Part shown: piece by piece, positions 10,108 to 50,887 of the stretch
Numbering within the stretch: the stretch's first letter is position 1
How the letters are laid out: every line of letters begins with the position of its first letter
IMG/VR virus record: IMGVR_UViG_3300039074_000056
Coordinates: 16,926 to 80,925 of that record
Origin: a virus
DNA: 64,000 nt
Strand: one strand, 5' to 3'
The notes under the pieces: model-generated
Seen by the model: the letters and a program-made list of their open reading frames with translations, nothing else
Told to the model about the DNA's origin: nothing
Database searches by the model: none
Program-made: the position numbers and the translations under genes

Positions 10108-10360
10108 AGATAAATTTGTCACCCTACGGAGTAATTCGTAGCACAAACACTACCTAAAACGGGAAACTCCTTCAGGACAATCCGTTGCTAAATATAGAGC
10201 TAAAGCTCTATTAAATGCCCAACGACTAGCCGCAAGGCGTACACTCAAGTGAGTGGAAATGGTAGTCTCCCTTACGGGATGAAGATATAGTCTCATCTGC
10301 ATGGCAACATGCAGCAGCTTAATTGCGGCATAAGCCTAACGACCTTATGTGAAGATAAAG
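10108..10360 (+). ncRNA. Group I self-splicing intron (IA2-like), 253 nt, no internal ORF
   Basis: P1 GGUGAU/GUCACC with a U-G pair at the 5' splice site; P7 GACUA/UAGUC within AAGAUAUAGUC; P3, P4, P7.1, P7.2, P8 and P9 helices; terminal G at 10360; removal restores the frame. Confidence 0.93.
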
Positions 10361-13300
10361 GAATTTAGATCGGTAGCAGAAGCTGCACCAGCCTTGCTAG
10401 ATGCCTTAGCTAAAGGCGGTAATGTTGCTCGTGACTCACTAAAGAAAATGTCACAAGATGGTTTGTTGACAACAAAGTTCGTAGCTGATGCTTTGCAAAA
10501 GAGTATGCTTGATTTAATCGTTGCAACAGAAGGCATCCCAAAAACTGTTGGACAGGCATTTCAGAACTTGTCAACAGGCTTTCAATTTTTTATCGGGGAA
10601 CTGAATAAAACATACGGAATTACAGAAGGTCTTTCAGGTATTATCTCAGAACTAGCCTCTGGTATGGTTGGACTTGGTAAGTCACTTCAAGATGGCAAGT
10701 TTCAGGAAGTTACCAATAATCTGTTAATTATGACAGGTGTTATTGGTGGTGCTGCTACTGCATTTTACATTATGGATGCCGCTAACAAATCCGCTAATGT
10801 TAGTTTGTTAGAATATGTAAAGAACCTAAGAATTGCCACAGGCGCTCAAGCCTTGTTTAACATTGTTGCAGCAGCTAACCCTTATGTAATTCTAGCTGCA
10901 ACAATCATCGGTGTTGCAACAGCCCTCTACTCGATGCGTAATGCTACAGTGGAAGTTGGTGGCACTACTGTGAGCATTGGCTCGCTAATTGTTTCTACTT
11001 TTGAGTCTTTGAAAGAGCGTGTTGGAAGTGCCTTTATATTTATAACAGAATCTTACAAAAAGATTACCAAAGGACTGCAAGACGCTTTTGTTGGAATCTT
11101 TAATTTCCTTAAAGACACTATTGCAGGAAAGATTCTTGGTGCTTTGGTAGATGCTTTTACTAACACCCTGAAAGCTCTCGGACAAATTGGCATAAGATTC
11201 GCTAAGGCACTTGGTCTTGATAAGCTAACTGAGCAATTCAATGCTTTCGTATCTGATCTTGGGCAAGATATTGTCATTGGTGCAGTAGTAAGAGATAGCA
11301 AAGGCGCGAAGCCTGAAGCAGTTAATCCATTTTTGGGGGGTGGTGGCACAGCTACCGTAGTTGAAACCGAAGCCACTAAAAAGCTCCGCGAAGAAAGAGA
11401 ACGCCTTGCAGAACAGAACGCTGAGTTTCGCAAGAATTACTTAGCAGAAACTGCACTACTCCAAAGTGTTAATGATTTAATTGCACAGGGTTTGCCACTG
11501 AAAGAGGCTGAATTAGAAGCACAGAAGTTAGTTGACACTCAGAAGGCAATTTCTGCTGGACTAACTCAACTTCAAATTGACAAGCAATACGCTTTGCGTG
11601 ATGCTATTAAAGCAACTGCCGATGCTGAAAAAGCTCGCGAAGATCAAAAGAAATATCAAGATTCTGTTGATAAAGACTTTGCTAAAAACCAAGAAGCTTT
11701 TCTTAAACCAGAAGAGCTTAAAATTGGTGATTTGTTTGGTGATGCAAGCAAGGGTGCTGGCGCTTTAATCAATGCTTTTCAGGACATTAATAAACAGCAA
11801 GAGGCTTATAACGAACTTCTAGCTGACGCTGTTGTCAACAACAGAGATGTTACTGACATTGAAAAGCAAAGAGCTAAGAACGAACTCCGTAACATTGGCA
11901 ATATCCTCGGAGCTACTAAAGGATTCTTCAAAGAGAAGAGTGCTGGATACAAGGTATTGTCTGCTGCTGAAAAAGCCTACAAAGCTTTTGAGTTGGCATC
12001 TACAATCAAGAATTTTGCTATTGAGAAGGGACTGACGCTAGAAACTATTGGCATTAAGCTTTCTGGGTATGCCCAGACCGCTATTGCCGCTGTCTCAAGT
12101 GCAGGCACATCTATTGCGGCATTGCTTGGTATTGGCGCTACTGCCGGTGCTGTTGCTCCCGTAACAGCCGCTGCCGGAACACCCGGCCCTGCTGCGTTTG
12201 TTGCATTCGCTGCGATGGCTGCGCTTGTGGCTGCCGCCGGATTTGGCGGCTCAAAAACAAAAGGTTCTTTCGCGCCAACTAACGAAGGTACAGGTACAGT
12301 CTTTGGTGACAAGTCTGCTAAATCTGAAAGCATTAAACGCTCTATTGATTTGCTTGCTGAGAACTCTAAAATAGAGTTACCAATCACTTCTGCAATGCTG
12401 AGAAGCTTGCAGAATATTGAGTCTAATATTGGTGGTTTGACTAACCTTGTTATTCGTAAGGGGGCTGGCGAAGACCTAGCAAAAACCGTAAGCACAGGCT
12501 TCAAAGAAAGTGGACTAGGCAAGGGACTTCGCACCGCTGTAGGTATCGTAACTCTTGGAGCATCGGAGTTACTTGGTATTGGAAAGTTAATTGGTGGACT
12601 ATTTGGAACTAAAATTTCTATTAAAGGCCAAGGTCTCTTAGGTGAAGCGCAAAATCTATCCTCTATTACTTCGGAAGGTTTTAATCTTAGAGAATATGTA
12701 GATATAAACAAGAAGAAAAAATCTTTTGGTTTTACTACATCTAATAAGAACTCTACGAGAACCTCAGCAGCTTCCGATGAATTGGAAAGACAGTTTACCT
12801 TAATTTTTACTGGCTTTTACGATGCTATCAAACTGGCAGCCGTTCCCCTAGGTCAAAACCTAAATGATGTTACCTCTCGCCTAGACAACTTTGTTGTTAA
12901 GATCGGCAAGATTAACCTAAAAGGCTTAAAGGGTGAAGAAATCCAAGAGAAGTTAGAGGCTGTGTTTGGCGCTGCTGCTGATAGTATTGCACAAGCAGCT
13001 ATTCCGGGCTTAGAAGACTTCCAGAAAGTGGGTGAAGGGTATTTTGAAACTGTAGTTAGAGTATCTTCGGGCATTGAACAAGCAGCACAGGCTCTTGATT
13101 TGTTTGGTGTTACGGCAGTCAACTTCAAAGACATTATCTTAAAACAAGGTGATGTTGGAGCTGAAATTGTTAGACAATCCTTAGTTCTTGCCAACGGAGT
13201 TAGCGGAGTTTCTGAAATACTTAGCATTGCTTCAGTTGATAGTGTAGATGCTATTGTGGAGCTTGCTACTCAGTTGTACTCTCTTCGTGACAATGTTATT

Positions 13301-26772: not shown

Positions 26773-28508
26773 TACTGGCAACTTTCGCAGTCAGTAATTC
26801 GCGTCACATCCCCTGCTCCACGCATAGAGTAGATGTAGTACAAACTCAAGATGTTTTCATTTAAGAAAGCCATGCGATGAATTTGTGCAATATACTCCTC
26901 GCTGTCATTACTTGTGAAGTACAAGTTAATTGATTGCTGTTGGTCAATATACTTTTGACGACTTGCCGCAAGAATAATAACCCACTTCATATCAATTTCA
27001 AAAGCTGTTCTAAACACAGCCTTCTCATGCTCAGTCAACCAACCTTCTTTCTGAATACTCCCCTTTGCTCGCGCAATTCGTTCAACAGTATCGGGATTGT
27101 AGACACCTCGCTCTTTCATCAAAGCAAGCAGCACTTTGTTAATCTTAAAAATCTCACCACCTGCTGTCTGTTTAGTATAGACCATAGCAGTGTCAAGACC
27201 AATACCCTCTGAACACGAAGCGGCTAGTTCGCTGGTTGATTTAGTTGGCGGCATCATTAACCGTGTCGCATTTCTAATACCAAGCCCTAGACAACCTTCT
27301 GGCTCCCCCATAACCTCTGCAAGCCATTCAGTAGCTTCTTTGCTATCCCTATCAAGCTTAGAGAAAATCTCTTGGTTAAGGAAGATACTTTCCATATCAC
27401 CAACAACAATTCGTCGCTTCTGAAACAGAGTGTGTAAGCCAAGTACACCACTGCCCAGAGCACGGAACTCTTTAGTGAAGCGGTAAATCTTAGACATAGC
27501 CTTTTTATCATACTCACTCATAGCTTCCATGCACTCTAAGTATTCGCTAATGTTGCAATCGGACATTACTTGCCCAATGAATACTAAATGCTCAGGCCAA
27601 CGATCATAAAGCTCCAAATTGTAATTCAAAATCACGCAGGAGAATGTGTAATTTTCATCTGCTGGGAGACATGTCTCTTGGCAAAGATTGCTTGCCTTTA
27701 CTGTTAAACCTTTTCTCTTAAACGCTTCTGCTAAGTGCCGGTTCATCTTATCAATAAAAGTATAATACCCCTTACCTTTTGGCATCTTAACAGAGAGAGT
27801 ATCAGCTAAACGCTGCATTGCACCTTCATCTTCTTGCTGAAGCTTCTCAACAAAACCGTCTTTAATAAGCCATCCCAAATTGTTGCCTTCTGGGTCTTTG
27901 TACAATAAGTTCAGTGCCTTCAAAGCGTCACCATGTTCAATATCCAAGCTATATGCTAGGCTACCACGACGACTACCTTGTGTTACTTCCGACATGCAAT
28001 TAACAAAATCACGAATCAGAGGGATAACACCCTTGCTATGACCTCCACGAGCCAACTTAGCTCCCTCACAAGGCCAGTCATCTACGCTGTAACTTGTACC
28101 ATGTCCGTGCTTGGTAAGAACGGCTGCCTCTGTAATGGCATTGTAGCGGTCAAACAAATTGTTTCCAACATAGCCACCAGCACAACTCACTGTCGTACCG
28201 CGCTTTCGCAGACCAGCGTTTGCAAACATTGGTGTACTTGGAATTACCAACCCATCCCAAAGAACATTAAAGAAAACATCTTCCCAAGTCTTGCCTGCTG
28301 TGTATGTATCAACATTCCACCAGCTAGGGTATTCTTTTGGTGCATGTTTTGCCATAGTCTTCGCAACAGTTTTCCAACGGCGCTTTGGAGTCTCTTTACG
28401 ATAAGAATACTTTTCGTAGAATAATTGAAGTCCTCCTGTCGAGTACCATTCAGGAACTTCTTGTTCTGCCGTCAACTGCTTTCGTAGCGCAGAGTAATCA
28501 ACACTCAT
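26772..28508 (-). CDS. nrdA: Ribonucleotide reductase class I alpha subunit (short, no ATP cone)
   Basis: PSTP...VSC, SNLCQE, PPTKS, LYY and C-terminal CESCQ motifs. Confidence 0.92.
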   Translation of the reverse strand: MSVDYSALRKQLTAEQEVPEWYSTGGLQLFYEKYSYRKETPKRRWKTVAKTMAKHAPKEYPSWWNVDTYTAGKTWEDVFFNVLWDGLVIPSTPMFANAGLRKRGTTVSCAGGYVGNNLFDRYNAITEAAVLTKHGHGTSYSVDDWPCEGAKLARGGHSKGVIPLIRDFVNCMSEVTQGSRRGSLAYSLDIEHGDALKALNLLYKDPEGNNLGWLIKDGFVEKLQQEDEGAMQRLADTLSVKMPKGKGYYTFIDKMNRHLAEAFKRKGLTVKASNLCQETCLPADENYTFSCVILNYNLELYDRWPEHLVFIGQVMSDCNISEYLECMEAMSEYDKKAMSKIYRFTKEFRALGSGVLGLHTLFQKRRIVVGDMESIFLNQEIFSKLDRDSKEATEWLAEVMGEPEGCLGLGIRNATRLMMPPTKSTSELAASCSEGIGLDTAMVYTKQTAGGEIFKINKVLLALMKERGVYNPDTVERIARAKGSIQKEGWLTEHEKAVFRTAFEIDMKWVIILAASRQKYIDQQQSINLYFTSNDSEEYIAQIHRMAFLNENILSLYYIYSMRGAGDVTRITDCESCQ

Positions 28509-29509
28509 TCATCTTCTCCTTTCTTTAATCCACGAACAAAACCGCTTGTATCCCAGCCAGACTCATACTCGTTACCTACACCGGCAGTAAAGAAGTCAAT
28601 GCTCTTGTAAGAGTAAGTACCTAACTCAAACCACTCCTTTACACTGCACTCTCCAATCTCAAAGAAGGGCGGCAACTGCAATCGCTCTAAGTAGACATTA
28701 AGGCGAATCTTTACATACTCTTTGTATTCTTGTTTGGCAACTCTGTTAAAGTAGTCACTAGGAATAGCCAAGTCAATAATACGACATTCGTGCTCAAAGA
28801 CTTTTTGAACAGCCTCTTTAATCTTCTCGTACCGAACTACATCATCTACTAACTTTTCACCAAGTTCTTCATAATAGGTGTTGATAATTTCAGCACTGAT
28901 AATACCATGAAGGTCTTCATCAATAGCACTTTGGTTTGTGCCTCGTACAATCACAGGAATTAGATTATTACCGTTGCTTTGGAATGACTTTAGGATAGCA
29001 AAGGCACTAAAAAGCAAAGCTGTCTCTGTCATAGAAAATACAGCCACTGCAAGAATATCATCTTCATCTTCAAGCACTTCACCAAGCCAATCTACGCGAG
29101 CTTTCAAATCTGGGTCTTTTGTATAAGCAGTGTAGTCCTTGTCACGATCAAGTCCAAGTACAACATTGATTTGATTGTAAAACTCTGCATGTACAGCCAA
29201 CTCAAACATTGTAACCACAGAAGCCACCAAAGCAACCTCTGGGCGAGGGAAAGCCTTTACAACACGACTTCCCCAAAACTCACCACCGACAATCAACTCA
29301 TAGCGCAAGAAGATAGTGAGAACGGTCTTAACTGCGTGTAGTTGCTCTTCACTAAGTTCGTACTTCAATTGCATCTTGTCAAGCTCAACCTTCATTTCTG
29401 TGCTTGTCCAAAATTGATCTTCCAAATGCTCATTAGCCAACTCAACTAGACGGGGATAGTGCCGCCGATAGCTGTCTGTTGTTGTTCTAATTTTTGGTTG
29501 TTTCATCAA
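28505..29509 (-). CDS. nrdB: Ribonucleotide reductase class I beta subunit
   Basis: FWT.TE, ELAVHAEFY, DEDLHG and DFF...NEY motifs; adjacent to nrdA. Confidence 0.9.
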   Translation of the reverse strand: MMKQPKIRTTTDSYRRHYPRLVELANEHLEDQFWTSTEMKVELDKMQLKYELSEEQLHAVKTVLTIFLRYELIVGGEFWGSRVVKAFPRPEVALVASVVTMFELAVHAEFYNQINVVLGLDRDKDYTAYTKDPDLKARVDWLGEVLEDEDDILAVAVFSMTETALLFSAFAILKSFQSNGNNLIPVIVRGTNQSAIDEDLHGIISAEIINTYYEELGEKLVDDVVRYEKIKEAVQKVFEHECRIIDLAIPSDYFNRVAKQEYKEYVKIRLNVYLERLQLPPFFEIGECSVKEWFELGTYSYKSIDFFTAGVGNEYESGWDTSGFVRGLKKGEDE

Positions 29510-44398: not shown

Positions 44399-44745
44399 TT
44401 ACTCACCTCCATTAGCAAGCAGTAGCCCTCATATCCTATATCACAAGTCACAAGAGTTTGCGAATGCACTTTCTTAAAACCAAAACTACCTGCATACTTT
44501 AGTGGCTCTTTGCTTGACTTGTAATTGCTGGAATCATAGCACCTGCCCTTATCCAGCGAACAAATTAGAATTGTTCTATTAGCTGCTACTTCACGACTTT
44601 TTTGAGAAGCTGTGCTGCTCTTTCCCTTTGAATTACTACTTGATACAACAGCTCCCGCCACTGCACCACCTACAGCCCCTGAGACAAACCCAGCGTTAGC
44701 TAAGGAGGGAATTAGTAGTGCGACTAACAATAAAATCTTATTCAT
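44395..44745 (-). CDS. Hypothetical exported protein
   Basis: Signal peptide ending ANA; glycine zipper; four Cys. Confidence 0.6.
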   Translation of the reverse strand: MNKILLLVALLIPSLANAGFVSGAVGGAVAGAVVSSSNSKGKSSTASQKSREVAANRTILICSLDKGRCYDSSNYKSSKEPLKYAGSFGFKKVHSQTLVTCDIGYEGYCLLMEVSK

Positions 44746-44911
44746 TTGTAATCTCCATTTCTATCAAACATAGTTTTCTTCCACTTCTTAGCTTGCTCTA
44801 TTTCAACAAGTCTGTCAAGTTCCCATTGCATCAGGCTACGAACATAGTCATCCTTTGTTGTGCCAATAACAAGGTACAACCCAATAAGACGGGTGATGTA
44901 ATGCCTTGGTG

Positions 44912-45250
44912 TCATTCCTCTTTCTCCTTACTGTGCAACCAGCAGCTACCAGAAATTACATAGCGCCCTGTTGGGAATCTGTCTTCGTTCTCCATCCTTG
45001 GACATTGGCAGCAAGGCGTAGTCCAATACTTGTAGTAATTGGGGTTAATAGGGAATCCCCATAGCGTCTGAAGCTCTTCCTCAATCTTAAACAACATCTG
45101 CCCCACTTCGTATGTCAGCTTACGATTCTTAGCTTCAATCAACAGAGGGATGCTGTTGTGCAAACTATCACGGAATGTATGCAGGCGCTCAATCTGTAAG
45201 ATTGTTTCTGTAGACAAGCCTTGCTTCTCTGCCAGTTTTAGGTTAATCAT
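44912..45250 (-). CDS. Conserved Cys-rich phage protein
   Basis: LQ.LWGF...W..P.C.CP.M.N...C.LH motif. Confidence 0.65.
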   Translation of the reverse strand: MINLKLAEKQGLSTETILQIERLHTFRDSLHNSIPLLIEAKNRKLTYEVGQMLFKIEEELQTLWGFPINPNYYKYWTTPCCQCPRMENEDRFPTGRYVISGSCWLHSKEKEE

Positions 45251-45468
45251 TTTTCTCTCTCCTTCTTTATCTGATTGATGTGGGACTTGGCCCTGTAACT
45301 TGACCAATTCCTCTCGAAGTTTGATGCTAAAGTTCCAAAAGATATGACAGTCACTATTCCATCAAGAAGTTCCATAAAACCTTGAACCCACCCCATGATG
45401 TGCATCTTCATGTTCTGATGCTTCCAGCGGATAATACGAATACCAAATGGAAGTTTAATACCGCTCAT
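45247..45468 (-). CDS. Hypothetical protein
   Basis: Coupled ORF. Confidence 0.5.
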   Translation of the reverse strand: MSGIKLPFGIRIIRWKHQNMKMHIMGWVQGFMELLDGIVTVISFGTLASNFERNWSSYRAKSHINQIKKEREK

Positions 45469-45749
45469 GTTTGTTCTCCTTCAAACTTAGCCTTCAACTC
45501 AAGATAACGCTTGCGCTCACTCTCAAGCTTCTTGGCTTTCTTCTCTGCCTTTTCTTTAGCAAGGCGCTCTTTCTTTTGTTGGGTTGTCTCTTTTAGAACG
45601 ATGTTTAGTGTTCTCTCATTATTGTATCCATAGTAATCACTTTCAATGGTATAACCTTTTCCAGTATATTTTGACAGGTATTCAATAGCTTTCTCTACTG
45701 TTTCACCATGCCCAAATTCAAAATCTTGCTCAATAAATATGTCGTTCAT
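45465..45749 (-). CDS. Hypothetical protein
   Basis: GGAG RBS; E...YL.LKAKFE C-terminus. Confidence 0.6.
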   Translation of the reverse strand: MNDIFIEQDFEFGHGETVEKAIEYLSKYTGKGYTIESDYYGYNNERTLNIVLKETTQQKKERLAKEKAEKKAKKLESERKRYLELKAKFEGEQT

Positions 45750-45780
45750 GTTTGTTCTCCTCTTTTGATTGAATGCGAGT

Positions 45781-45810
45781 ATCCTACACCAATTCACTAC
45801 TCTGCGTCAA
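45781..45810 (-). promoter_or_regulatory. Leftward sigma70-like promoter
   Basis: TTGACG-18-TAGGAT on the - strand, heading the leftward operon. Confidence 0.6.
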
Positions 45811-45863
45811 GCACTAATTTCAAATAATTTTGCAAGAGATAGGGTTTTATAGTGAGAAAGTTG

Positions 45864-45893
45864 TTGACACGGGGAAGGTAGGTGTAGTACAAT
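45864..45893 (+). promoter_or_regulatory. Rightward sigma70-like promoter
   Basis: TTGACA-18-TACAAT; back to back with the leftward promoter. Confidence 0.7.
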
Positions 45894-45899
45894 CGGCCT

Positions 45900-46240
45900 G
45901 TTTTCTGACTAGAAGGAAAACATGTAACCAAGGTTTTCTGCGTTGACGACTGTCGGCCTTGGTGATTGTGCCCGTAGGCAAGGGGAAGAAGATCACGGTA
46001 CGCCCCAAAGTGGTAAGCGAATTTATCAGCCACGAACCGTTAGTGACTCTTAAGTGAGGTAAATGATAAACTGTATCTGGCAACAGCCAGCCTAAGCCTC
46101 GTCTGAATTTACAGAGAGATTTATGGGGGACAGAGCTAGCCTGTGTTGAAGGGAATGGGGCAGTGTAGGAACTGCTCTTAAATACCTTCTCTATAGGGTT
46201 AGTATAAGCTCTGTTTCCTAGCCTGAACTGATTTACAGTA
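45900..46240 (+). ncRNA. Candidate structured ncRNA A (about 340 nt)
   Basis: Directly after a promoter; no credible ORF; multiple helices, some with G-U pairs. Confidence 0.55.
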
Positions 46241-46350
46241 GTATATAGATAAATATTAATATAAGATATAATTTAGATAAGATCAACAAACATGCAGTAA
46301 AAGAGCTAAACGAAAGAATAGCTTTGCTTAGGATTAGATGAAGAAGGGTG

Positions 46351-46379
46351 TTGACATAGAATATCACCTTCTATAGTAT
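46351..46379 (+). promoter_or_regulatory. Sigma70-like promoter
   Basis: TTGACA-17-TAGTAT. Confidence 0.55.
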
Positions 46380-46410
46380 CTGCTTATGTTGAGCAACAGG
46401 AGAGATTTTT

Positions 46411-47127
46411 GTGGAGCAAGCCAAGCAAGTAGTGTACCTAATGAAAAACAGTATGTCTTTATATAAGATAGGCATTAGCGTAGACCCTAAGAGAAGGTGT
46501 AACGACATACGACTGGCTTCTGGCATTCATACAGAAATATTAAAGACATTTGATACAACAAACGAAGCAAGGCTAGTAGAGCAATCTCTGCACAGGCACT
46601 TTTCTTCAAAAAGAAAAGAAGGAGAATGGTTTCGTCTTACTAAAGAAGATTTGCAAGACATTGCAAAAACAGTAGCTCAGGTGGATTTTGCCATAACAGA
46701 CGGCATAAACAATGTTGCCAGTTCAGCAGAAGAGTTGACTGTTGAAGAGTTGTTTAACTTTATTGCCTCTTTCGGTTTGCCGGAAGACTTTACAGTAAGT
46801 GACTGTCAAAGATTGTGGGATTCTCAGGTGGCTTTCTTTAAGTGCCTTCTTTCTGTATCTAATACAAAGTTTCGTCAGCTTTTAGAGATGTTGTTGGATA
46901 GGGGATACCATGTTAGTGAAAATATTTGTAATATAGATGAAAGAAAACCATTTTGGGCAGGGGTTACTTTTTGCTCTTTCGTTATTGAGTATTATCCCGT
47001 GGTTCCAAAAAATCTTTTAGGAAATGTTTCATCCGTATACAAATACGAAACTGCTAAGAGGATGTATGAAGAATACTTTCAACACTGCTCCAAGTACAAA
47101 ATAGAACCTATGGAGATAACAAAATGA
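46411..47127 (+). CDS. T5orf172/MUG113-type GIY-YIG domain protein
   Basis: VYLM...YKIGIS.DP.RR...E..LH..F...R..GEWF.L motif. Confidence 0.8.
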   Translation: MEQAKQVVYLMKNSMSLYKIGISVDPKRRCNDIRLASGIHTEILKTFDTTNEARLVEQSLHRHFSSKRKEGEWFRLTKEDLQDIAKTVAQVDFAITDGINNVASSAEELTVEELFNFIASFGLPEDFTVSDCQRLWDSQVAFFKCLLSVSNTKFRQLLEMLLDRGYHVSENICNIDERKPFWAGVTFCSFVIEYYPVVPKNLLGNVSSVYKYETAKRMYEEYFQHCSKYKIEPMEITK

Positions 47128-47360
47128 CAATAGGAACAATCTACATTGATGGATTTGCATACCACTCCCGCCTTTCTGAATACAATGACGCTTTAGGGTG
47201 GTATGAGAAAGAAGAACCTATCTATGAACAAATGGAGTTCTTCGGCGGTGAAGTGGTTGAGGGATTGATGATCCCTAAGACTAGCTGCCTATGCTTCGCA
47301 CACAGCAGTAGTGAATGTTGTTGTGGTGCTTGGGATTACACTCAATACATGGAGGAATAA
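47124..47360 (+). CDS. Small Cys-rich hypothetical protein
   Basis: C.C.AH...ECCCGAW motif. Confidence 0.55.
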   Translation: MTIGTIYIDGFAYHSRLSEYNDALGWYEKEEPIYEQMEFFGGEVVEGLMIPKTSCLCFAHSSSECCCGAWDYTQYMEE

Positions 47361-47361
47361 A

Positions 47362-47631
47362 ATGAACGAACAAATTAAGTTTTGTAAAGATTGTAAGTGG
47401 AGTGGCTTGTCAGCAAACTTTTGCCATAGTCCAAACAACGGCACTACCCTTGTAGATGGAAGTAGTAAAGTTAGGTTTTCAGAAGTCAATCGTGGTGATT
47501 CTTATTTTGGACTACCAACTTGTGGCAGTGAGGGTAAGTGGTGGGAGCCAGTAAAATACTACAAAGAAGAAGTATCTGAGAAGCAATCTTATTGGCAAAA
47601 AGTAAAGACTTTATTTGCTAAAAAGTATTGA
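47362..47631 (+). CDS. Small Cys-containing hypothetical protein
   Basis: FCKDCKW...C..P...CG.EGKWWE motif. Confidence 0.6.
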   Translation: MNEQIKFCKDCKWSGLSANFCHSPNNGTTLVDGSSKVRFSEVNRGDSYFGLPTCGSEGKWWEPVKYYKEEVSEKQSYWQKVKTLFAKKY

Positions 47632-50631: not shown

Positions 50632-50864
50632 GTAACCCAGCATACGAACATTCCCTTACAATAGATGGAGTATGCCTAATTGTAGAGTACGAGTGGTGTC
50701 CTGTTGATAATGTAATCTGGCAAATCAATAGTATCCGTGTGGAAGGAAGTGATAAAAACATTGAATCATTGCTTTCAGATGGTACGATTGACCAAGTATG
50801 TGCTTCTATCTATTCTTGCCGTAAGGAAGAAGAAGAGGAAGCTAAGTGGGGACATTTGGTATAA
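50628..50864 (+). CDS. Hypothetical protein
   Basis: GGAG RBS; coupled ORF. Confidence 0.55.
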   Translation: MSNPAYEHSLTIDGVCLIVEYEWCPVDNVIWQINSIRVEGSDKNIESLLSDGTIDQVCASIYSCRKEEEEEAKWGHLV

Positions 50865-50887
50865 ATGTATTTAGTAGATTAAAGTTG

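Follow-up and report, generated by a model that had tools for sequence, protein, structure and literature searches.

The divergence point near 46 kb

The locus is the junction at which leftward replication genes (primase-helicase, polymerase, and ribonucleotide reductase) adjoin small rightward genes. It lies in a window of 64,000 nucleotides that corresponds to bases 16926-80925 of a virus record; the record is 80,925 bp long and has a terminal repeat of 107 bp. The first leftward gene (45465-45752, - strand; 95 aa, no family) marks the strand-divergence point, and the downstream gene on the + strand (46411-47127) encodes a T5orf172/MUG113-domain protein (PF13455, E 1.7e-15); its PHROG matches include some that bear the name homing endonuclease or endonuclease. 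The sign of the GC skew flips at the locus, and the cumulative skew is lowest near 46 kb. No tRNA genes were found in the window. By DNA polymerase, the nearest named relatives of this virus are an uncultured phage (59.6%), Limnohabitans phage DC31 (56.8%), which is filed under Pakpunavirus, and Curvibacter phage P26059A (54.4%). Close relatives are also represented in freshwater and groundwater samples by public contigs, which are short pieces that leave the interval between about 46082 and 46328 uncovered. None of the listed sequencing runs that contain this DNA is an RNA run.

A sigma-70-type promoter (TTGACA-18-TACAAT, 45864-45893, + strand) points into the gap between these two genes, matches the consensus at 11/12 positions, and is the best match within the surrounding 3 kb. 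A second promoter-like site (TTGACA-17-TAGTAT, 46351-46379, + strand, 10/12) serves the next gene. Both had been recognized in a preliminary description of this DNA, and both are real. Promoter-like sites as a class are not enriched here (6 found in 44500-47500 versus 6.3 ± 3.0 expected); despite this, the site at 45864 counts as a promoter because it is the best match and because it is repeated ahead of a second copy of the element, copy A, that is described below. In the alignment of copy A with the element at the present locus, copy B, the -10 region (GTAGTACAATC) ahead of the two is identical. Contigs from relatives that extend over the 45864-45893 promoter show 4 differences in 99 nt and in 213 nt. 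No terminator-like site was found on the + strand between the promoters at 45864 and 46351. In the rightward block behind copy B, terminator-like sites are not enriched (18 versus 13.1 ± 3.7). Promoter-like sites with a perfect TTGACA are found on the + strand at 46351, 50145, 50888, 53578, 54864, 55421, and 58227, ahead of small rightward genes, although taken together the promoter-like sites of this stretch are not enriched.

The longest + strand open reading frames in the gap are 38, 36, and 32 aa and all begin with TTG, in agreement with the earlier view that it holds no credible gene. Two 78-aa open reading frames on the - strand had been raised as possible real products of the region. 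These begin with GTG or TTG, lack a Shine-Dalgarno sequence, have no PHROG match, and have no protein-level counterpart in copy A or in Pseudomonas phage PAK_P1, and we do not regard them as genes.

A structured RNA and its paralogue

The predicted RNA of 341 nt folds with a minimum free energy of -107.3 kcal/mol, and its z score is -2.42 on the + strand versus -1.25 on the - strand. This stability is concentrated in the 3' 150 nt (46073-46222), where z is -4.38 on the + strand (0/200 shuffles were as stable) versus -2.30 on the - strand. For the 5' 150 nt, z is +0.57, and 144 of 200 shuffles fold as well. Among the helices listed in the preliminary description, the minimum-energy fold contains GUUUUC/GAAAAC, ACCAAGG (45927)/CCUUGGU (45957), and CUGGC-aaca-GCCAG, as well as each of the four helices that make up the long arm. 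UGCC/GGCA, GGGG/CCCC, and GUGG/CCAC, by comparison, are without support, as the 5' 150 nt are no more stable than shuffles; the centroid of the 5' half keeps only the 5' hairpin and ACCAAGG/CCUUGGU.

The 5' hairpin (GUUUUCU, loop, GGAAAAC; 45900-45921, + strand) stands at the predicted RNA start and appears in both the minimum-energy fold and the centroid. One relative's contig apparently has another stem around the same loop word (a 30-letter loose end after 45906), and another carries T45904C, which would break one pair of this hairpin. The helix ACCAAGG/CCUUGGU (45927-45963, + strand), which is kept in the centroid, is followed by a long-range helix of the minimum-energy fold, UUUAUCA/UGAUAAA (46022-46070, + strand), that ends 6 nt before the hairpin H1. 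By our reading of their positions, these two helices would be placed like helix P1 in copy A and in the phage family described below, although the conserved loop motifs are missing, and like the long-range helix of copy A; UUUAUCA/UGAUAAA would then be the positional equivalent of CCACAU/AUGUGG of copy A.

The 3' domain of copy B consists of a small hairpin, a word, a long hairpin, and the same word again (H1, R1, H3, and R2), all on the + strand. H1 (46077-46090) is CUGGC-AACA-GCCAG, and the same stem occurs in copy A with 5/5 pairs kept. One relative's contig apparently keeps the H1 stem with another loop (a 12-letter loose end), and H1-like hairpins with other stems were recognized by eye at the loci of phages VCM, REC, PPSC2, UAVern, and PAK_P1. 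Repeat R1 (46091-46114), one half of the best internal direct repeat, goes with hairpin H2 (46098-46118, loop AAUUUA) and contains the copy-specific word CUGAAUUUACAG. H3, a long G-U-rich hairpin (46124-46220), lies within the stable 3' domain, and repeat R2 (46217-46238), with the same word (CUGAUUUACAG), begins 126 nt after R1.

Copy A was located by weak collinear BLAST hits and subsequent alignment. It occupies bases 10141-10515 of the genome, outside the window and 52.6 kb upstream of copy B, and is also at a strand-divergence point. A covariance model built from the 3' domain of copy B alone found copy A and nothing else in the 67 kb searched (54.2 bits, E 1.6e-12). When folded alone, copy A takes the same shape, with z scores of -4.95 on the + strand and -1.86 on the - strand. 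The stem of H1 and the internal-loop motifs of H3, GGGAAUGGGG (46151-46160) and CUCUUAAAUACC (46175-46186), are invariant between the copies.

Comparison of copy A with copy B showed that 19 of 46 base pairs are changed on both sides and that 96.7% of the cells are paired, in an alignment of two sequences that was fitted to the structure of copy B itself. No shuffle of 500 reached this count, and slid partners were 38-55% paired. The changes on both sides affect 16 of the 34 pairs of helices 3-5, which form H3 (one cell unpaired), and 3 of the 7 pairs of helix 2 (H2); 2 pairs of helix 2 are broken in copy A. In our own reading, repeat R2 of copy A cannot form a hairpin of the R1 type, and the conserved feature at R1 and R2, as far as can be read from the two copies, is the word and not always a hairpin.

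From the strand-specific stability, the G-U pairs, and the compensatory changes relative to the paralogue, we conclude that the element is a real structured RNA, as had been proposed, and that this non-coding RNA has its own strong promoter. The further proposal of a stand-alone early small RNA is upheld with respect to structure and promoter and not with respect to standing alone, as no terminator follows. The element looks instead like a leader, because a terminator is missing and because copy A and the elements of several relatives run into the ribosome site of the first gene; in copy A, R2 lies ~30 nt before this site. About 1.2 kb downstream of copy A are two matches to the tRNA model (genome 11747-11899, or L006 2748-2900; 69.9 and 41 bits), of which ARAGORN calls just one, as tRNA-Thr(tgt).

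Related elements in Pseudomonas phages

Comparison of the PAK_P1 genome with itself by BLAST revealed two elements, at 28255-28536 and 89507-89780, that are 69.9% alike over 299 nt and are each preceded by a TTGACA promoter. The first of these matches 154 Pseudomonas phage records at 278 places. Each of the eight loci fetched is flanked by a leftward gene on one side and a rightward gene on the other, and the annotation there contains nothing or only small "hypothetical" open reading frames. An RNA annotation of the element was found neither among the listed matches of the PAK_P1 element nor at the eight fetched loci. A profile of the PAK_P1 pair (nhmmer) gave one significant match in the genome of the present phage, inside copy A (E 2.3e-4).

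Model R3, a covariance model for the 5' domain, was built from 10 Pseudomonas-phage sequences only. It contains 19 predicted pairs, 11 with compensatory change, and helix P1 covaries. Many unpaired bases of the family's 5' domain are invariant; the domain also contains helices that covary, and it may possibly include a pseudoknot. Copy A scores 34.1 bits against model R3 over its full length (E 5.4e-9), and sequence comparison thus places it within the Pseudomonas-phage family. When model R3 was applied to the further genomes of UAVern, VCM, KIL4, PPSC2, and EM, it gave exactly two matches on one strand in 5/5; two copies on one strand are likewise present in this phage, and PAK_P1 has two. 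A weak match of model R3 at 50813-50886 of the window, which contains GAAGAAGAGGAAGC, is probably due to chance (7.8 bits, E 0.58).

Copy B does not match model R3 even with filters off (best score on the element, -0.7 bits). Since this match is missing and the 5' 150 nt are no more stable than shuffles, its membership in the family rests on paralogy with copy A and on the layout of the 3' domain. Copy B shares with the family a sigma-70-type promoter directly upstream, at a strand-divergence point. Based on these results, copy B is a diverged second member of an uncatalogued family of structured leaders in Pseudomonas phages of the Pakpunavirus, Otagovirus, and Flaumdravirus types.

In all 12 elements, the best internal direct repeat flanks H3, with a spacing of 95-126 nt. 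The repeat is 15-32 nt long overall, 22-32 nt in 11 of the 12 elements, and 22-24 nt in copy B. The core of the word is the same within one RNA and different between phages; it reads CUGA(A)UUUACAG in copy B and CUCA(A)UUUGGAU in copy A, and between VCM and REC a single letter of the word is changed, at each of its two occurrences. A search of the elements and two genomes for a partner complementary to the twin words found nothing consistent. A descriptor composed of H1, a word, a long hairpin, and the same word matches copy A, copy B, and 8/8 loci; 3.48 Mb of shuffled sequence and the genomes of 4 other phages gave 0 matches. The descriptor was drawn up with the sequences already known, and it misses both PAK_P1 copies. 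With an earlier, stricter descriptor, copy B was the sole match.

Other searches added no firm member to this family. An Rfam scan had been suggested in the preliminary description; when run, it gave no family for copy B, copy A, or the Pseudomonas-phage members tried. Nothing passed the gathering threshold for the element in the window or for the copy A locus, and three Pseudomonas-phage loci gave nothing at E 0.1 or better. At E values up to 10, the scan returned only 6 sub-threshold chance matches to snoRNA or miRNA families, of 18.5 bits or less. Elsewhere in the window, 10098-10314 matches a group I intron family in Rfam (76 bits versus a gathering score of 50).

By blastn, the region matched none of 50,697 phage records; for the 3' domain, a threshold of E 10 let through 2 records (E 2, about 20% coverage). 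Matches of copy B to five relatives by blastn were rejected as chance; the PAK_P3 match, which was inspected, falls within the gene for DNA polymerase. Searches with models R1 and R2 gave no match in DC31, P26059A, MW202701, SYP, phiPMW, PAK_P3, PAK_P1, or KPP10; for model R2, which represents the 3' domain of the present phage, PAK_P1, PAK_P3, P26059A, MW202701, and DC31 gave no match, and by this measure the interior of H3 is unlike that of the Pseudomonas members.

At the protein level, no relatives of the downstream gene were found in IMG/VR, and a search with the primase-helicase yielded 4 distant loci that were left out of the comparison. The neighbor proteins have 2 and 3 homologues in a large protein set, and their alignments led to no loci in IMG/VR or metagenome contigs.

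DNA motif scans covered IMG/VR and metagenome contigs. One scan gave 0 matches, another a single match inside a 326-aa open reading frame, which was rejected, and a third 9 matches, 0/9 of which fit model R2. In a scan with 21 matches, 7 represent one conserved coding context, read as a thiazole-synthase-like gene, and were rejected, and 1 weakly fits model R2 (20 bits, E 0.017). This last match, at 10303-10414 of a metagenome contig (L035), is a short hairpin with both H3 loop motifs and may be a minimal relative or chance. Three IMG/VR contigs (L019, L021, and L023) share a near-identical stretch that is in part apparently non-coding and has no match to the RNA model. In the accessible text of the literature searched (including PMC4933390, PMC10914365, and PMC5563952), this RNA is not described.

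Possible roles of the RNA

The reading that we favor, tentatively and with rather less than even confidence, is that 45864-46238 is copy B of two ~340-nt leader RNAs that act in cis early, in the manner of nut or put sites. In this mechanism, host sigma-70 RNA polymerase would make the ~340-nt RNA from the near-consensus early promoter at the divergence point. The RNA would act in cis during its own synthesis, on the read-through or the expression of the rightward genes, and a single phage-specific factor would bind to both R1 and R2, by analogy with boxB for the N protein. Against this, the rightward block behind copy B contains many other TTGACA promoters; given these and the lack of enrichment of terminator-like sites, a need for antitermination is not evident. 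Directly behind copy B, the T5orf172/MUG113 gene and the promoter that serves it may form a cassette that was inserted here and cut copy B off from its gene. Such an insertion would explain why copy B, unlike copy A, is separated from its gene.

The position of the element argues for this cis-acting role. In phage HK022, putL and putR are reported as non-coding structured RNAs just behind early promoters, and they resemble the present elements in being two look-alike copies per genome with no protein-coding role (PMC9378689). The likeness is one of position only, that is, a location right downstream of early promoters and two copies per genome. The put RNAs are ~70 nt long and have a two-stem shape; they attach to RNA polymerase during elongation and keep it from pausing and terminating in cis. 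If this length is taken, the present element is ~5 times longer, and it differs further in its twin repeated word and its long hairpin.

The nutL and nutR sites of lambda are likewise leader sites behind two early promoters. Within one phage, the two sites carry nearly identical boxB hairpin words; between phages, boxB words of the lambda type differ. In the present family, by comparison, the word occurs twice within each leader, ~100-126 nt apart, and the element is far larger. The invariant loop of H3 shares GCTCTTAAA with the boxA of lambda nutL (9 consecutive letters in copy B and 8 in copy A), a single motif that was noticed post hoc. The corresponding loop motif, CTCTTAAATACC, is found at 46175-46186 of the window and at about 1441-1452 of the copy A locus (L006) and has 8-9 letters in common with the nutL boxA region. 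This boxA-like 9-mer is partly paired inside H3, and it was not seen in those Pseudomonas members whose sequences were inspected.

A broader version of this idea is conceivable, although we consider it doubtful. The elements would represent a new phage RNA module, with a conserved and probably pseudoknotted 5' domain at the front and, behind it, a long hairpin flanked on both sides by a short phage-specific "address" word; one module would lie ahead of each of two rightward blocks. The address would co-evolve with a phage-encoded reader and set the fate of the transcript (read-through, cutting, or priming) beyond what is described for leader RNAs, and copy B would be a variant without the 5' domain. 

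The two copies offer a natural dissection, with both domains in copy A and only the 3' module with its twin word in copy B. A word that is the same within an RNA and different between phages is a concrete, testable puzzle. At least 154 sequenced Pseudomonas phages, among them those of the PAK_P1 type that are studied for therapy, carry the family behind strong early promoters, and its presence in a freshwater phage extends it beyond Pseudomonas phages. If two large gene blocks depend on the RNA for the control of their read-through, processing, or replication, it would be a main switch of the infection cycle in this phage group and also a handle for engineering these phages.

The element could instead be the precursor of a stable small RNA. 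R1 and R2 would then be cutting sites of one endoribonuclease, as in CRISPR or type III antitoxin repeats, and the freed H3 (~120 nt) would act in trans or soak up a host factor. The identical words that flank H3 in 12/12 elements are consistent with such processing, as is H3 itself, the most stable part of the RNA with invariant internal loops, and with a separate promoter for the gene behind copy B, the RNA there need not be a messenger leader. The ncRNA candidates derived from 5'UTRs that ONT-cappable-seq revealed in other Pseudomonas phages also resemble the element, being non-coding RNAs that start at a phage promoter ahead of genes; in the accessible part of that study, they are short and ended by premature terminators, and PAK_P3 is the only relative of the present phage that is mentioned (PMC10914365). 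The element itself was not found in PAK_P3 with the 3' model or the PAK_P1 profile. We rejected sRNA1 and sRNA2 of PAK_P3 as equivalents, as they are described as late, ~100 nt long, and adjoining tRNA genes (PMC4933390). Given this difference and the absence of a complementary target or a consistent partner of the words in the elements and two genomes, a small-RNA precursor is unlikely.

We assign a lower probability to an origin or primer RNA, which had also been put forward for this locus, in which a persistent RNA-DNA hybrid behind the structured part would prime DNA synthesis. Promoter-dependent origins and primer RNAs include ColE1 RNA II, T4 oriF and oriG, and the T7 primary origin. The present locus resembles these in its strong promoter at a divergence point, its structured RNA, and, for copy B only, an AT-rich tract, which we read in the sequence of the spacer behind the element (46240-46300). 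The minimum of the cumulative GC skew and the presence of two copies per genome also fit replication; the skew, however, tracks the direction of transcription here and does not distinguish replication from transcription. The AT-rich tract is not a feature common to the family, in that the ribosome site follows directly behind copy A, PAK_P1 copy 1, and the elements of UAVern and KIL4 with no such tract, and the element occurs twice and always on one strand, which differs from promoter-dependent origins. Priming would also leave the twin words unexplained, and DC31 has an AT-rich repeat region at its divergence point without such an RNA. That region of DC31 (L018 14650-14950) is very AT-rich and origin-like, with repeated words similar to GTTATAACCTAT.

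A similarly low probability attaches to a sensor-type leader, either riboswitch-like or an operator titrated by protein, through which the first rightward gene would be controlled in its translation or stability. Sensing would fall to the 5' domain and switching to R1, H3, and R2, in which the two repeats would compete for a single partner. The makeup of the family's 5' domain (its unpaired invariant bases, its covariation, and its possible pseudoknot) would suit a sensor, and R2 lies near the ribosome site, at a few nt in PAK_P1 copy 1 and UAVern and at the longer distance given above in copy A. However, a promoter lies between R2 and the gene in copy B and in phages EM and EPA1, copy B does not have the conserved 5' domain, a search for alternative pairings shared across the family found none, and Rfam gave no riboswitch match.

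That the region is no RNA element at all, and holds either an unannotated small protein gene (the - strand 78-aa reading frames) or a neutral spacer with chance helices, is highly improbable: the 5' half does fold no better than shuffles, but the reading frames lack an ATG start, a Shine-Dalgarno sequence, a PHROG match, and a protein-level counterpart in copy A or PAK_P1, and the 3' domain combines its low z score with 19 compensatory pairs relative to copy A.

Two further observations concern the Pseudomonas phages. At four loci of the Otagovirus type (L075, L076, L077, and L079, at ~1000-1100), a C/A-rich unstructured spacer lies behind the element and is followed by a ribosome site with a mini-ORF of two codons (ATG AAA TAA) and then by a conserved gene whose product starts with MRCKCC. 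In PAK_P1, the self-BLAST also revealed, at ~56.3-66.7 kb, at least 5 copies of a 40-66-nt repeat that are 76-95% alike.
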